A stretch of DNA of 64,000 bases from Pelagibacteraceae bacterium AG-426-M19. Its GTDB lineage: Bacteria > Pseudomonadota > Alphaproteobacteria > Pelagibacterales > Pelagibacteraceae. The notes below the pieces were generated by a model, which was given only the letters and a program-made list of their open reading frames with translations, ran no database searches and was not told the DNA's origin. Positions 3,792 to 43,992 of this stretch are shown here, one piece after another. Numbering within the stretch: position 1 is the stretch's first letter; the number at the start of each line of letters is the position of its first letter. The stretch covers positions 23,077-87,076 of the forward strand of contig QCNW01000006.1 in assembly GCA_003210025.1 (NCBI GenBank), in the 5' to 3' direction. Both the position numbers and the translations under genes were made by a program.

Positions 3792-4200
3792 AAATATAAT
3801 TAAAGAGCTTACTGAATATTTAAATGAGTTTAATCTTACTGAAATAGAATACACAGAAAAAGATATAAAAGTAAAAGTATCAAAATCATCTGGAGCAAAT
3901 TTAACAACTGTTAAAGAGATAAAATCAGAAATAAAATCAGAAAATACAAAGCTAGATAATATCAGTGGGACTGAAGTTCCATCACCTATAATAGGAACAG
4001 CTTATTTAGCTCCAGAACCAGGTGGTAAAAAGTTTGTGGAGGTAGGGAAAAAAGTTAACAAAGGTGATACAATCATGATTGTTGAAGCTATGAAAACAAT
4101 GAATCATGTGCCCTCTCCAATATCTGGTACAATAAAAAAAATTTGTGTTGAAGATGGTCAGCCTGTTGAATATGGACATACCATTGCAATAATTGAATAA
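3778..4200 (+). CDS. accB: Acetyl-CoA carboxylase biotin carboxyl carrier protein
   Basis: EAMKTMN biotinylation motif; next to accC. Confidence 0.96.
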   Translation: MKINKNIIKELTEYLNEFNLTEIEYTEKDIKVKVSKSSGANLTTVKEIKSEIKSENTKLDNISGTEVPSPIIGTAYLAPEPGGKKFVEVGKKVNKGDTIMIVEAMKTMNHVPSPISGTIKKICVEDGQPVEYGHTIAIIE

Positions 4201-4202
4201 TA

Positions 4203-5540
4203 ATGTTCAAAAAAATTCTTGTTGCAAATAGAGGTGAGATAGCCGTTAGAGTTATTAGAGCCTGTAAGGAATGGGGCATTCAAACAGTCGCTATTCATTC
4301 TGACGTTGATAAAAATAGCATGCACGTTCGATTAGCTGATGAAAGTATATGTGTTGGACCTCATCAAGCTGCAAATAGCTACTTAAATATTCCAGCTATT
4401 ATGTCAGCTATTGAATTAACAAATTCTGAAGCTGTTCATCCAGGATACGGTTTTTTATCTGAAAATTATGAATTTGCAAAAATCCTTGAACAAAACAAAA
4501 TTAAATTTATTGGCCCGTCTTCCTCATTGATTAAAATGATGGGTGATAAAATTGAAGCAAAAAAAATTGCAAAAAGATATGGTCTTCCAGTTATTGAAGG
4601 ATCTGATGGAGGTGTATCTGATTTTAATGAAGCAAAAAAAATATGTGAAGATGTTGGGTATCCAGTTTTGATAAAAGCTGCAGGAGGTGGTGGTGGAAAA
4701 GGAATGAAAGTTGTTACAAAAGAAGAAGAATTTGAAAACTTATTTTTGACTGCGAAAACTGAAGCAAAAAAATTTTTTGGTAACGATGAGGTATATATTG
4801 AGAAATTTTTTCAAAATCCAAGACATATTGAAGTTCAAGTATTATCTGGAAAAAATAGAACAGTACATTTACATGAAAGAGATTGTTCGATTCAAAGAAG
4901 ACATCAGAAATTAATTGAAGAAACACCTAGTCCTTTACTGAATGATAAAATACGAAATGACCTTTTTGATAAAACAGTAAAAATGGTAAGCCAAATTGGA
5001 TACGAAGGTGCTGGCACAGTAGAATTTATTTTTGAGGATGGAAAATTTTATTTTTTAGAAATGAATACAAGAATACAAGTAGAACATCCGGTAACAGAAG
5101 TTGTAACGGGTATAGATTTAATCAAAGAACAAATCTGGATTGCATACGATGGTAACACAGCTTTAAAACAAGAAGATATTAAGCCTAGGGGACATGCTAT
5201 TGAGTGCAGAATTAATGCTGAAGATGTAAGTAAAAATTTTCAACCATCGCCAGGGGAAATTACTATGTGTCATCAACCCTCTGGATTTAGAACAAGAGTA
5301 GATGGTGCGATATTTCAAGGCTATAAGGTAACTCCATATTATGATAGCATGATTTGCAAGGTAATATGTCATGGGAGGAACAGAACTGAAGCCATTCAAA
5401 GAATGAGAAGGTCTCTTGATGAGTTTGTTATTGAAGGCATTAAAACAACAATAGACTTACATAAAATACTTTTAAATCATGAAAAATTTTTAAATTCAGA
5501 TTTTAATGTAAGTTGGCTTGACAAAGAAAAATTGCTTTAG
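4203..5540 (+). CDS. accC: Acetyl-CoA carboxylase biotin carboxylase
   Basis: KILVANRGEIAVR, HPGYGFLSEN, GGGGKGM, ERDCSIQRRHQK, EMNTRIQVEH. Confidence 0.97.
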   Translation: MFKKILVANRGEIAVRVIRACKEWGIQTVAIHSDVDKNSMHVRLADESICVGPHQAANSYLNIPAIMSAIELTNSEAVHPGYGFLSENYEFAKILEQNKIKFIGPSSSLIKMMGDKIEAKKIAKRYGLPVIEGSDGGVSDFNEAKKICEDVGYPVLIKAAGGGGGKGMKVVTKEEEFENLFLTAKTEAKKFFGNDEVYIEKFFQNPRHIEVQVLSGKNRTVHLHERDCSIQRRHQKLIEETPSPLLNDKIRNDLFDKTVKMVSQIGYEGAGTVEFIFEDGKFYFLEMNTRIQVEHPVTEVVTGIDLIKEQIWIAYDGNTALKQEDIKPRGHAIECRINAEDVSKNFQPSPGEITMCHQPSGFRTRVDGAIFQGYKVTPYYDSMICKVICHGRNRTEAIQRMRRSLDEFVIEGIKTTIDLHKILLNHEKFLNSDFNVSWLDKEKLL

Positions 5541-5944
5541 GAAAAGCATTTTTTTAACCAAATATCATAAACGGGATGATCAAATGGTCTAATTGAAGGG
5601 GACGAAGCAAAAGTCCAGTCGTTGAAAATAAAAACTTTATTTTCATCTCTATTAACTGTATCTCTTACTTGCATATATGCTGTAACCTCTGGATCATCAT
5701 CAAATTTTGAATTATTGCATTTAAGAATATTTATAGAAAGATTTTTAAATTTATATTCTCTACCAACTTCAATTTCAATTATTTCGCTTTGGGAATTTAC
5801 TTTATCTAAAATTGTTAGAACTGCAAATTTTTCAGTTTTTGTTTGATTTTCACTTAAAGAATTAATTGTTAATAAATAATAAAAAAAAAAAACAAGTGTA
5901 TAAACTTTAGCTTTTCCAAGAAGTATATTTTTTGTTTGAAGCAT
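5537..5944 (-). CDS. DUF2155-like exported protein
   Basis: Hydrophobic N-terminus, LDKVNS, C-terminal FNDWTFASSPSIRPFDHPVYDIWLKKC; usual position next to NDUFA12. Confidence 0.75.
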   Translation of the reverse strand: MLQTKNILLGKAKVYTLVFFFYYLLTINSLSENQTKTEKFAVLTILDKVNSQSEIIEIEVGREYKFKNLSINILKCNNSKFDDDPEVTAYMQVRDTVNRDENKVFIFNDWTFASSPSIRPFDHPVYDIWLKKCFS

Positions 5945-39896: not shown

Positions 39897-40490
39897 ATGA
39901 CATTTGAATTACCAAAACTAGATTATTCTAATGAGGCTTTGTCTCCAATAATGTCACAAGAAACATTAGAATTACATCATGGAAAACATCACCAAACCTA
40001 CATAACAAATCTTAATAATTTTATAAAAGATACAGACATGGCTGAAATGTCATTGGAAGATATAATTATAAAAAGTTCAAAAGATAACTCAAAAGCTGGA
40101 ATATTTAATAATGCAAGCCAGCATTGGAATCATAATCTTTTTTGGAAATGCATGAAACCAAAAGGTGGTGGGAGTATTCCATCAAAACTTGAGAAAAAAA
40201 TTGTTGAAGATTTTGGAAGTGTTGAAAAATTTAAAGATCAATTTAAACAAGCAGGTATAACTCAATTTGGATCAGGTTGGTGTTGGTTATCTTTAAATAA
40301 TGATAAATTAGTTGTAACAAAAACAGCTAATGCAGCAAATCCATTAATAGAAAATATGAAACCAATACTTGGTTGTGATGTTTGGGAACATTCATATTAT
40401 ATTGATTATAGAAACAGAAGACCTGAATATTTAGACAAATTTGTTGAAAGTCTTATTGATTGGGAATTTGTTGAATCCCTTTTAGGTTAG
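39897..40490 (+). CDS. sodB: Superoxide dismutase with Fe-type signature
   Basis: LHHGKHH, FNNASQHWNH (Gln typical of FeSOD), TANAANP rather than NQD, DVWEHSYY. Confidence 0.92.
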   Translation: MTFELPKLDYSNEALSPIMSQETLELHHGKHHQTYITNLNNFIKDTDMAEMSLEDIIIKSSKDNSKAGIFNNASQHWNHNLFWKCMKPKGGGSIPSKLEKKIVEDFGSVEKFKDQFKQAGITQFGSGWCWLSLNNDKLVVTKTANAANPLIENMKPILGCDVWEHSYYIDYRNRRPEYLDKFVESLIDWEFVESLLG

Positions 40491-40505
40491 TTTAAAATAA
40501 AAAAA

Positions 40506-40733
40506 ATGAACAAAGTCAATGCCAGTAAACTCTGGAAAATTATTCAGGAAGCAGGTGACTATTTGGATGGTCAATTACCTGATCACCCAAATCATCCGAA
40601 AGGAAGAAATCCATACGCGCATGTAGCAATATGTGTAAAAAATAAATTTAATGCTAGTTACAAAGATATCGAAGACGATAAATTTAATGAAGTATTAAAT
40701 TTTATCGAAGATATTAAAAACAATCCTAACTAA
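40506..40733 (+). CDS. 75-aa hypothetical protein with His/Pro motif
   Basis: LPDHPNHPKGRNPYAHV; co-oriented 15 bp after sodB. Confidence 0.75.
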   Translation: MNKVNASKLWKIIQEAGDYLDGQLPDHPNHPKGRNPYAHVAICVKNKFNASYKDIEDDKFNEVLNFIEDIKNNPN

Positions 40734-40742
40734 TAAATAAAA

Positions 40743-40802
40743 TTAATCTAAAAATTGTTTATATGCAAAATAAGCTAGAACTAATACAGCTACAACTTCC
40801 AT
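40743..40802 (-). CDS. Micro-ORF B, 19 aa single TM: MEVVAVLVLAYFAYKQFLD
   Basis: Manual translation; SD AAGGAG (40812-40807) then AAAT-ATG; paralogous to micro-ORF A. Confidence 0.72.
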   Translation of the reverse strand: MEVVAVLVLAYFAYKQFLD

Positions 40803-40812
40803 ATTTCTCCTT

Positions 40813-40872
40813 TTAATTAAAACTTCCAGTAGCAAATAATATTATTATTACTAATACTGCCACAGCTTCCAT
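40813..40872 (-). CDS. Micro-ORF A, 19 aa single TM: MEAVAVLVIIILFATGSFN
   Basis: Manual translation; first 8 codons match ORF B with mostly synonymous differences; its stop abuts the SD of ORF B. Confidence 0.68.
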   Translation of the reverse strand: MEAVAVLVIIILFATGSFN

Positions 40873-40878
40873 TAATTT

Positions 40879-40907
40879 CTTGTATAATTTGAAAGGGTTA
40901 ATTTCAA
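40879..40907 (-). promoter_or_regulatory. Candidate promoter and operator for the micro-ORFs
   Basis: TTGAAA (40907-40902), 17 bp, TACAAG (40884-40879), 6 nt, then ATG; overlapping inverted repeat TTGAAA-N7-TTTCAA (40889-40907). Confidence 0.4.
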
Positions 40908-40913
40908 GTAAAT

Positions 40914-41963
40914 TTAATTGAAAATAGTATTCAAAAACTCATCCACTTCACTGTCTTTGGTATTCCAAGCAGTGACTAATCTAACTGTTTTGCCAGTCAA
41001 TTCATCTTTACTCATCATATACTCTTCTGAATTAAGATGTTCGACCATTTTTTTCGGGAGTTTCACAAAAACTTCGTTTGCTTCTGTCGGATATTCTAGT
41101 TTTACTTGATTGCTAGAAACTAAACCATCGCTTAATTTTTTTGCCATTAGATTTGCGTGTCTTGCGTTTTTTAACCAAACATCATTTGTGATATATCCAT
41201 CTAACTGTGCTGAAACAAAACGCATTTTAGACAATAGATGACCAGATCTTTTTAACAAGAATGGTAAATTCCCAACCAATTCCTTTTTAAATATTATTAT
41301 TGCTTCAGCTGCTATACATCCGTTCTTTGTTGCTCCAAAAGATAATATATCAACACCTGATTTCCATGTCATTTCTGCAGGAGTTACATCTAGTGAAACA
41401 AGCGCATTAGCGAACCTAGCGCCATCCATATGTACTTTTAATTTTTTTTTATGTGCAATTTCAGAAATATTTCTAATTTGATCTAAAGTATAAACTTCAC
41501 CAGTTTCTGTTGCTTGAGTTATGCTAACAATAGATGGTTGAGTGTGATGCACAATTCCAAACCCTCCAATATTATCATTTAGCTCATCAACTGTTATTTT
41601 GCCGTCTTTACCTTTCAATGGAACAAGTTTTGCTCCACCTGAATAAAATTCAGGGGCTCCACACTCATCCACATTGATATGAGAAAATTTATGGCAATAA
41701 ATATTTCCAAATGATGGAGATATAGCAGAAAGTGCTAAAGCATTTGATGCGGTTCCTGATACTGTGGGGTAAACAATTACATCTTTTTCAAAAATTTTAG
41801 AAAATTTTTCTTGTAACACACCTGAAATTTCATCATTACCATAAGGTGGGGCAATACCATCATTTGCTTTGATAATTGCATCCAAAACTTCTGGACAAGC
41901 TCCTGTCACATTATCTGAAGCAAATTTTACTCTTTTGCGTTTTGTATTAATTTTTGCGTTCAT
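40914..41963 (-). CDS. ltaE: Low-specificity L-threonine aldolase
   Basis: FASDNVTG, YGND, SHINVDECGAPEF, HMDGARFANA, SFGATKNG (PLP Lys). Confidence 0.9.
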   Translation of the reverse strand: MNAKINTKRKRVKFASDNVTGACPEVLDAIIKANDGIAPPYGNDEISGVLQEKFSKIFEKDVIVYPTVSGTASNALALSAISPSFGNIYCHKFSHINVDECGAPEFYSGGAKLVPLKGKDGKITVDELNDNIGGFGIVHHTQPSIVSITQATETGEVYTLDQIRNISEIAHKKKLKVHMDGARFANALVSLDVTPAEMTWKSGVDILSFGATKNGCIAAEAIIIFKKELVGNLPFLLKRSGHLLSKMRFVSAQLDGYITNDVWLKNARHANLMAKKLSDGLVSSNQVKLEYPTEANEVFVKLPKKMVEHLNSEEYMMSKDELTGKTVRLVTAWNTKDSEVDEFLNTIFN

Positions 41964-41964
41964 T

Positions 41965-43080
41965 TTATTGTTTTGGAAAATAATCTTTTAAAGTACCTTC
42001 TCTATAAACATCGGCTGTACAACAATGAAGGCCTCCACCAAAAGCATAAGCATCTCTCAACTCTACAGGGATAACTTCCATACCTAATTTATCTAACTGT
42101 TCAGCTTGATATTTTTCACTTTTTTCAACGCATACAGTTTTAGGGTCAAGAACTAAAACATTCATTGATAGCCATACTGAAGAGTAACAAAGTGGTGGCG
42201 GGGTATTATGGGCAGGTTGTGCTGCATCAATAATTTCCCATCCATTATCTTCAAATAATTTTCTTTGTTCTTTTGGAAGTCTTCGTTGTGGGTTATTAAT
42301 AATTAATCCCTCTTTAATTGGGGTAAAGGTTGCATCAATATGAATTGGATAAGGATCGCCTGGGAAATTTACAGCATGAACTCTATGATCCTTAAAATGT
42401 CTTTTTATCCAATCAATTCCTTTTAAGTTAGTTGTAAATCCGTGTTGTACAACTAAATCCTTTCCAAATCTTAGAATATCTGCTGCATCAAATAATGGCT
42501 CTTCCTCAGTTGTGACAAAGTATTTATTTTCTGTCCATTCGAGTCTTTTAGTTACACCAATTTTATCTGATAAATAATCTTTTCTATAGTCTGCATCTGT
42601 TAATCTAGGCTTTGGTGCTGACTCATGTCTCATATTTGGATCTTTATTATAATAGTCTTTTAATAATGGTCTGTAACATAGGTACTCAAACCATCTGCAC
42701 CTGTAGCTCATTGTAGCTTCTAATATTTCATTTCCCACAGTTAATAAAACATCTCTAGGTGGCATACATCCAAACATAGTTTCGGCTTTCCAGTCAGGAG
42801 TTGATGTTGGTTGATTAAAATTTAAAGGTGTTGGTCTATCAACTTTTATACCCCTTTTTTCTAGCAAATTTGAGAAGTTATCTAATAGTTCATTAGCTTT
42901 ATCGACAGTGTCCTTAGTTCTTGGACCATAAGTACCTCGCATATCAGAGTCTTCTGGAACTTTAGCATCTAAAGCAGGTTCAGGTGCTGGAATACAAGTA
43001 CCATCTGCTCTTCCAACAATTACATGTTTTAATGGATCCCATTCATTCCAACTATTAACAATCTTATTATTTTGAACCAT
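41965..43080 (-). CDS. Amidinotransferase (AGAT/StrB1-like)
   Basis: VNSWNEWDPLKHVIVG, PRD, FDAAD, IHIDAT, FGGGLHCCT (Asp/His/Cys triad). Confidence 0.88.
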   Translation of the reverse strand: MVQNNKIVNSWNEWDPLKHVIVGRADGTCIPAPEPALDAKVPEDSDMRGTYGPRTKDTVDKANELLDNFSNLLEKRGIKVDRPTPLNFNQPTSTPDWKAETMFGCMPPRDVLLTVGNEILEATMSYRCRWFEYLCYRPLLKDYYNKDPNMRHESAPKPRLTDADYRKDYLSDKIGVTKRLEWTENKYFVTTEEEPLFDAADILRFGKDLVVQHGFTTNLKGIDWIKRHFKDHRVHAVNFPGDPYPIHIDATFTPIKEGLIINNPQRRLPKEQRKLFEDNGWEIIDAAQPAHNTPPPLCYSSVWLSMNVLVLDPKTVCVEKSEKYQAEQLDKLGMEVIPVELRDAYAFGGGLHCCTADVYREGTLKDYFPKQ

Positions 43081-43086
43081 GTAAAT

Positions 43087-43992
43087 TTAATTTAATCCAA
43101 TAAATCTTCTATTAGATTGCATTATCATACTATAATAAAATATAGCTAAAAAAATAAAGAAGCCACCAATAATTGTGTTAGTTGAAGGAATTTCATTTAT
43201 TCCAAGCCATGGAAGCCAAACCCAAAATATTCCTCCTATTACTTCAGTCAAAGACAATAAAGTCAAATCAGCTGCAGGAATATGTTTAGATCCAATTGAA
43301 TAAAGAATTAAACCCATGCAAACAAGTGTTCCATGAGTGGCAAATAATGCTTCATTTTTATTTGAAGATAAGAAATTTGCATCGTTATTTAAAAGCATAA
43401 CTGTTGAAAATAAAAAACAAAATAAGCCTGCTATAGCAACAGTTGTAAACTTGGGAGTTTGTTTTCTCCATCTCAGACTTACTGAAAAAATTGAAAAACC
43501 TAATGCTGATACTAATCCAAATATTAGACCCATTAAAGAATTTTCTCCGGTATTACCGTAGGCCATTACAATTATGCCAAATGCAGCGACTAAAATTGAT
43601 ATCCAAACTGTGATTGATATTTTTTCTTTCAAAAAAAGAAAACCAAGTAGTGCGGTTATAAAAGGCATTGCAGCTAAACATAATAGAGTTACTGCTGCTG
43701 TCGTATTAGTAATTGACCAAATAAAAGTTATCATTGCTGTTCCTAAACCAACACCACCTATAATTCCAGATATACCAATTTTTAAATAATTTTTATAAAA
43801 TGAAATTCCTTCTTCCAAAAATAAGTAAACATTGAGCAATAAAAAAATAACAATACCTCTTGCAAATAAGTATTGCCATGGGACAGTTTCGGGTTGATCT
43901 ATATGTCTTACAACATATGGCCCAAATGACCAAAGTATGCCTGCAAATAAAACTATCGGAATGGCTACTTTAGGATTTTTTAAATCAGGCAT
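43087..43992 (-). CDS. DMT/EamA-family transporter
   Basis: 10 TM; QYLFARG, LLSLTEVIGGIFWVWL..E.P. Confidence 0.88.
   Translation of the reverse strand: MPDLKNPKVAIPIVLFAGILWSFGPYVVRHIDQPETVPWQYLFARGIVIFLLLNVYLFLEEGISFYKNYLKIGISGIIGGVGLGTAMITFIWSITNTTAAVTLLCLAAMPFITALLGFLFLKEKISITVWISILVAAFGIIVMAYGNTGENSLMGLIFGLVSALGFSIFSVSLRWRKQTPKFTTVAIAGLFCFLFSTVMLLNNDANFLSSNKNEALFATHGTLVCMGLILYSIGSKHIPAADLTLLSLTEVIGGIFWVWLPWLGINEIPSTNTIIGGFFIFLAIFYYSMIMQSNRRFIGLN

Follow-up and report, generated by a model that had tools for sequence, protein, structure and literature searches.

What fills the apparently empty gap between an ltaE-like aldolase gene and the convergent sodB cluster in Pelagibacteraceae bacterium AG-426-M19 (contig QCNW01000006.1, positions 23,077 to 87,076; this whole stretch of 64,000 nucleotides is referred to as the window)? 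The original prediction placed two minute open reading frames (ORFs) on the minus strand of this gap, and reading the sequence directly bears this out. ORF A, the upstream copy (40872..40813, minus strand), encodes the 19-residue peptide MEAVAVLVIIILFATGSFN followed by TAA, its minus-strand DNA starting ATGGAAGCT and ending AATTAA. ORF B, the downstream copy (40802..40743, minus strand), encodes MEVVAVLVLAYFAYKQFLD, likewise 19 residues and TAA, starting ATGGAAGTT and ending GATTAA. Between them lies a spacer of 10 nt (40803..40812, minus strand; AAGGAGAAAT), which begins right after the TAA of A and contains the strong Shine-Dalgarno (SD) sequence of B. A has no SD and is the less constrained copy, while B represents the conserved core of the cassette. 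Following the comparisons described below, A and B are likely to be real protein-coding genes, belonging to one family of hydrophobic peptides of 18-19 amino acids. As far as sequence can tell, this is a new family among the bacterial small hydrophobic proteins missed by annotation, occurring in one Pelagibacter subclade and at one site.

That the pair is unannotated holds as well: no gene caller gives A or B as genes of 18-19 codons. The sole gene call that touches the peptides is an artefactual ORF of 62 amino acids running over the ltaE stop, the remnant of A, and B (proteins P0123 and P0124 from the Tara ENA contigs L159-L162; loci and contigs are referred to by L-numbers), in which a TGA is read as Trp. 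The ltaE protein of the window is encoded residue for residue on another Pelagibacteraceae contig, CACICP010000005.1 (GCA_902585175.1), where the gap was left empty by the gene callers. A 30-residue ORF with a TTG start (40835..40743), given by the ORF finder, was considered as the real product and rejected, because the SD stands directly before the ATG and because L127, which has the same cassette type as L018, carries an in-frame stop directly before that ATG; an exact look-up of this longer ORF returned no record.

Coding signatures of the two micro-ORFs

Among 214 random ATG ORFs of 15-25 amino acids in the window, 7 are as hydrophobic as A and B or more so. Hydrophobicity by itself is thus unremarkable in a genome of 28% GC, and the case must rest on conservation and comparative evidence. 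Within the window, the first 24 nt of A and B differ at four sites, three of which are synonymous third positions, as had been predicted, and a degenerate pattern of the shared N-terminus matches at A and B only (and never in 100 shuffles). For the wider comparison, 80 genome loci of up to 7 kb were collected by ltaE anchoring, and a profile hidden Markov model (HMM) of the peptides (41 bits for A, 40 bits for B) was run on six-frame translations of the window and these loci. A context-free degenerate DNA pattern matched metagenome contigs 34 times, 11 of these matches being true members, and orf75 homologues (orf75 being the convergent gene downstream) led to about 25 more short contigs from ENA, JGI and NCBI. 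In total, relatives are found in 8 SAR11 single-cell or metagenome-assembled genomes and in more than 30 metagenome contigs.

The protein-level selection that had been proposed for these unannotated ORFs is supported by comparisons of codon positions and of nonsynonymous to synonymous divergence (pN/pS), most clearly for B. Across the 8 unique intact B sequences, the variable sites are distributed 2/1/13 over the three codon positions (13 of 16 in the third position, P = 1e-4), and 10 of the 16 changes are synonymous, versus 23% expected (P = 1e-3). The pairwise pN/pS of B is 0.25 in frame, compared to 1.08 and 1.86 in the other frames. In fact, the B copies of L018 and L106 differ at five positions, all of them synonymous, besides a change of the stop from TAA to TAG. 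In the group of A and single-copy sequences the variation is distributed 24/9/27, the low count at second positions being what the exchange of one hydrophobic residue for another would produce, and pN/pS is 0.57 in frame against 0.74 and 2.81 out of frame; the A copies of the window and L112 have a pS of 0.59 and a pN of 0.06.

Intact copies are always 18-19 residues long, with a constant stop position at which TAA, TAG and TGA are all used, and the exceptions in start, frame, length or stop are identifiable pseudogenes. In the 14 distinct peptides M1, E2 and A5 are invariant, and the consensus ME-x-[VIL]-A-[VIF]-[LVF]-[VIM] continues with hydrophobic residues up to a short polar tail (an example of the Met-Glu N-terminus is MEVVAVLVLAYFAYK). 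Between the window and L018, B retains 79% amino acid identity, compared to 89% for the neighbouring ltaE and 72% for orf75.

The description of the AAGGAG behind the stop of A as a rare strong SD also proved accurate. The window has only two instances of AAGGAG with an ATG 4-9 nt behind it, namely before B and before the GYD-domain gene, and a 4-mer SD core is at best present in 6 of the 62 window ORFs of at least 120 amino acids. A strong SD (AAGGAG, GGGAGG, GGGGG, AAAGGA or AAAGGAG) precedes every B or single-copy gene except the B of L112, which is frameshifted and has its SD degraded to AGAGAG. B and the single copies would therefore be translated efficiently from a signal that is rare in this genome.

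A, on the other hand, may be expressed in a different way. A promoter-like motif, TTGAAA-N15-TATACA (40881..40907, minus strand), directly follows the ltaE stop and ends 8 nt before the start of A. The combination of CTTGAAA, a 15-nt spacer and a TATAnA-like hexamer (AATAGA in L123 and L106) is present in all 20 unique two-peptide haplotypes (among them the window, L001, L018, L106, L112, L120, L123, L127 and L159-L162), with a spacer that is constant in length and variable in sequence and with the hexamer ending 7-8 nt before the start position of A. The motif is kept where the ATG of A is lost, and is absent from single-peptide loci; a consensus promoter scan did not report it. A transcript from this candidate promoter would begin at or next to the AUG of A, so that A would be read leaderless or nearly so, which may account for its lack of an SD; B, together with its SD, would be on this transcript as well. 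A hairpin formed by TTGAAA and TTTCAA behind ltaE was considered as a terminator and discarded, as it occurs only in the group of the window and is not conserved in L018, L112 and L159.

Gain and decay at a single junction

The gene downstream of the cassette, orf75 (40506..40733, plus strand), is a convergent gene of 75 amino acids, a SAR11-wide hypothetical, the stop of which lies 9 nt from that of B. Elsewhere in Pelagibacter, outside this subclade, the stops of ltaE and orf75 abut or overlap (orf75 lies around 4040-4280 in L020-L062), from which it follows that the cassette is a derived insertion. Profile members occur solely directly downstream of ltaE, and solely where ltaE is at least 89% identical to that of the window; no further copies were found elsewhere in the window or the 80 loci by the profile search. 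On a neighbour-joining tree of ltaE, the cassette-bearing genomes form one clade, with the cassette-less L003-L011, L013, L019 and L016 nested inside it, which points to one gain followed by repeated losses.

Among close relatives, the number of copies is 0, 1 or 2. Two peptides are present in the window, L001, L002, L018, L127 and many contigs, a single A-like peptide with a strong SD in L012, L014, L015 and L122, and a single peptide of a third type (MEGLAIV...) in L017, L109 and L134. The cassette is missing from 12 related genomes, in 11 of which ltaE directly abuts orf75. Where two copies exist, the sequences indicate that the SD-driven B is tightly conserved, and that A is conserved in most haplotypes with several decays. 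Of the 20 unique two-peptide haplotypes, 13 have an intact A, whereas at least four lineages with an intact B have an A that is disrupted in start, stop or frame: the start has become ATT in L002, and ATA in combination with a frameshift in L140/L148; the stop has changed to CAA in L153; the copy of L106 is degenerate; and in L159-L162 the ATG has turned into ACT or TTT, with B identical across all four contigs. The sole defect of B is the 1-nt deletion in L112, where A is intact. Taken together, this is a dispensable small-protein family, the conserved core of which is B or, in single-peptide loci, the single copy.

As for the source of the inserted DNA, blastn-short with the cassette as query yielded only matches of 13-18 nt in the masked window and 59 Pelagibacter loci, and when 5.8 billion clusters were searched for a larger homologue with the 41-codon segment running from stop to stop around A, no candidate emerged. 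Two pattern scans of the IMG/VR viral contigs returned chance matches only, none of which combined an ORF of 18-19 codons with an SD and low GC, and a phage origin is therefore not supported. All true members are located in the ltaE-orf75 gap, apart from one on the chimeric contig L115 (FUFK010146790.1; GC 42%), where the peptide is fused to an ORF of 82 amino acids. This contig was rejected as a second genomic context: its left half is an unrelated, GC-richer element (which continues natively in L163, up to an Illumina adapter at the end), its right half, with the SAR11 B gene, equals the SAR11 contigs L159-L162 but for one base in the 3' flank, and the junction falls in a microhomology of 15 nt. 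No phage match was found for L115.

Function of the peptides

What the peptides do has to be approached through their composition and through the genomes that live without them. In A and the single copies, the hydrophobic core comprises about 15 residues and would be competent to cross a membrane, its Hessa-type insertion cost summing to a favourable -1.2 to -1.7 (0.0 for the A of L018), while B has a hydrophobic N-terminal segment of 12 residues and a polar tail (KQFLD or QHFLG), with an unfavourable sum of +3 to +4. The net charge is -1, with an acidic N-terminus owing to the invariant E2. The peptides are probably membrane-inserted, in which case each product would form a single short helix in the inner membrane, where it may act as an accessory modulator or stabiliser of a membrane component encoded elsewhere, one copy being enough. 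The chances are about even that the family represents such a dispensable small membrane micro-protein with an accessory role, by analogy with the known cases discussed next.

Small proteins of the inner membrane with genes inside an operon or at its end include CydX (37 amino acids, cydABX), KdpF (29 amino acids, kdpFABC), AcrZ, MgtS and PmrR. The SAR11 peptides resemble these in their probable form of one short hydrophobic helix, in being conserved at the protein level and often missed in annotation, and in lying at an operon's edge with a ribosome-binding site of their own. They are, however, shorter (18-19 amino acids) and have no sequence similarity to them and, unlike the CydX and KdpF type, they are dispensable, confined to one subclade, and do not co-vary with the adjacent transporter. 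The latter point bears on the proposal that A and B form an obligate two-peptide (heterodimeric) regulator of the upstream DMT (EamA) transporter. The genes do lie at the 3' end of the operon of EamA, the amidinotransferase-like gene and ltaE, with the stop of A abutting the SD of B, and KdpF and CydX are encoded in the operons of their partners. Yet seven loci (L012, L014, L015, L122, L017, L109 and L134) carry only one peptide and either copy can decay while the other is intact, so that one copy suffices, the copies decay independently and the obligate heterodimer fails. Likewise, the operon is found across Pelagibacter in genomes that lack the peptides, and cassette-less genomes keep EamA and ADI-like proteins that are 98-99% identical to those of the window (98.7-99.7% for EamA in the 12 genomes), by which the DMT as partner fails too. 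This reading is consequently very improbable.

For the same reason, other roles that would tie the peptides to the operon were abandoned. A precursor of a ribosomally synthesised and post-translationally modified peptide (RiPP), to which an exporter, two enzymes and the peptides would belong, is at odds with enzymes that are conserved without the peptides, and for a class IIb two-peptide bacteriocin or RiPP there is no leader, while the neighbouring enzymes and exporter are unchanged where the peptides are missing. A further comparison is offered by the staphylococcal PSM alpha operon, which consists of tandem ORFs of about 20 amino acids, each with its own SD. The SAR11 peptides are similarly tandem, paralogous, about 20 residues long and presumably translated without a leader peptide. 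PSMs are amphipathic, however, and exported by a dedicated ABC transporter, whereas the SAR11 peptides are hydrophobic throughout except for a polar tail, and have neither an exporter nor an immunity gene linked to them.

An alternative to the accessory membrane role is that the cassette is a type I toxin-antitoxin-like module, with membrane-damaging peptides of the Ibs/ShoB/Ldr class, the translation of which would be repressed by an antisense transcript reading through from orf75/sodB or by an unrecognised small RNA (sRNA). With 18-19 hydrophobic residues, the peptides belong to the same size class as Ibs, and like Ibs/Sib of Escherichia coli they occur as tandem copies in an intergenic gap that are patchy among strains; such patchiness among close relatives and frequent decay are typical of chromosomal type I loci. 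A possible dedicated promoter fits as well. Read-through from orf75 would be antisense to the cassette, and is physically plausible since this convergent gene ends 9 nt away without a terminator in between (the predicted lack of a terminator-like hairpin was confirmed for 40300-41300). A plus-strand, AT-rich promoter-like match at 40714-40743 is within chance (7 found, 5.5 expected). Against this stands the lack of any Pfam, NCBIfam or PADLOC match at E <= 10 for A, B and the G-type peptide, including Ibs_toxin (PF13956), Ldr, TisB and Fst. A high degree of structure is usual in the mRNAs of type I toxins and in the corresponding sRNAs, whereas here neither strand is more structured than its shuffles (z = +0.89 for sense, +0.98 for antisense), no structured antisense RNA or terminator as in Ibs/Sib was predicted, and the strong, conserved SD lies exposed. 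Basic residues are found in most type I toxins, while the N-terminus here is acidic and the net charge negative, and there is a single locus rather than a dispersed repeat family. Full-text searches turned up no paper pairing Pelagibacter with type I toxins (nor any report linking it with such small ORFs or peptides). A toxin module therefore appears unlikely.

The peptides could also be young proto-genes of recent origin in T-rich inserted DNA and nearly neutral, their apparent constraint reflecting hydrophobic composition and short divergence. De novo transmembrane micro-proteins from thymine-rich sequence have been described in yeast, and the present case resembles them in being lineage-restricted, in having no detectable donor or larger homologue, and in encoding a transmembrane-like peptide in a genome of 28% GC, in which random short ORFs are often hydrophobic. 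The derived nature of the insertion within one subclade and the frequent loss of copies or of the whole cassette are also in agreement with it. Unlike in yeast, the ancestral non-genic state in SAR11 is a spacer of zero length, which means that the DNA of the cassette was inserted or captured and did not evolve in place. Moreover, three-base periodicity and five out of five synonymous changes between diverged B copies are unexpected for neutral sequence, B is as conserved as ltaE and orf75, a strong SD has been preserved although SDs are rare in this genome, and the persistence of 70-140 bp at a junction that otherwise has zero intergenic space argues for selection. Near-neutral proto-genes are thus quite unlikely. 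The idea that the element is not translated at all (i.e. an sRNA, a 3' untranslated-region element, a terminator or a repeat), or that it encodes attenuation leader peptides, could draw on the absence of annotated genes of 18-19 codons in the gap and on a richness in Val, Ile and Leu reminiscent of ilv-type leader peptides. It is scarcely credible, given that variation concentrates in third positions while frame, length and stop position are conserved, that neither strand folds stably, and that the region has neither an Rfam match nor a terminator (on the same grounds a structured RNA or riboswitch was rejected). A leader-peptide role is excluded in particular because there is no same-strand gene downstream to regulate, the next gene being convergent.

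Several points nevertheless weigh against an accessory membrane micro-protein. Translation is deduced from evolutionary signatures only, and these come from a small sample of mutually related sequences (8 unique sequences of B, and 14 of A or the single copies), in which the in-frame pN/pS of A (0.57) is only moderately below that of the +1 frame (0.74). The 12-residue hydrophobic stretch of B is short for a membrane span, and the 15-nt spacer of the promoter-like motif is short, or at least atypical, for sigma-70. The repeated losses of A, of B (in L112) and of the whole cassette show that selection is weak or conditional. Recombination, a frequent event in SAR11, may have distorted the ltaE tree. 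Finally, the modulator role is suggested by analogy with CydX, KdpF, AcrZ and MgtS.

A more far-reaching account of the locus, which is rather unlikely, would combine these elements into one history. In one of the most streamlined genomes of free-living organisms, a micro-gene would have arisen de novo or been captured at a junction without any spacer, would have become fixed by selection and duplicated in tandem, and would now be undergoing sorting (B kept, A decaying, whole cassettes lost), with A leaderless from its own promoter; or else the cassette would be the first type I toxin-like module of SAR11, silenced by the convergent orf75 transcript.

Surroundings and significance

Upstream of the cassette, the last annotated gene of the minus-strand operon is that of the ltaE-like pyridoxal-phosphate (PLP) aldolase (40914..41963, minus strand; Beta_elim_lyase PF01212, 1.2e-54). 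Its best NCBIfam match is the GntG family with 70.9 bits (the cutoff of 230 bits is not reached), compared to 49.7 bits for canonical LtaE, and judging from its sequence the aldolase may act on a substrate other than threonine. The same operon contains an ADI-superfamily amidinotransferase/DDAH-like gene (41965-43080, minus strand) and the EamA/DMT transporter gene (43087-43992, minus strand). On the plus strand, the GYD-domain gene, msrB, sodB and orf75 converge on this operon; orf75 has no Pfam or NCBIfam match, and its homologues amount to 5432 protein clusters. Elsewhere in the window, a glycine riboswitch aptamer (RF00504, 58554-58643, minus strand, 68 bits) is the sole Rfam match at gathering level.

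Larger insertions also occur around this locus in some close relatives. A variable island of about 1.8-2 kb, which the window lacks, lies between sodB and orf75 in L003 and L014, and upstream of orf75 in L139-L146; it encodes a long TPR-repeat protein in L139 and L144-L146, and a sulfotransferase in L141. The island genomes are about 99% identical to the window in EamA and the ADI-like protein, 95% in ltaE and 78-83% in orf75, a drop along the locus that suggests a recombination boundary. L016 and L017 have different AT-rich insertions downstream of ltaE (about 4050-5860), with an extra island of about 1.7 kb between the single peptide gene and orf75 in L017, while orf75 was not detected within the locus of L016.

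SAR11 serves as a model of genome streamlining: intergenic DNA is nearly absent, and accessory or selfish elements are few. In such a background, an insertion of 70-140 bp that encodes 19-residue peptides and is under selection would mean that even streamlined genomes gain, duplicate and lose micro-genes that are invisible to standard annotation. The narrow, uncultured clade in which the cassette occurs limits the immediate impact of this. At the same time, its natural series of 0, 1 and 2 copies, together with the pseudogene states, makes the locus suitable for studying the birth, duplication and decay of small proteins, as well as the use of a strong SD in an SD-poor genome. If the peptides were indeed toxins, or modulators of a major membrane complex, they would be relevant to the physiology of a very abundant lineage of marine bacteria.

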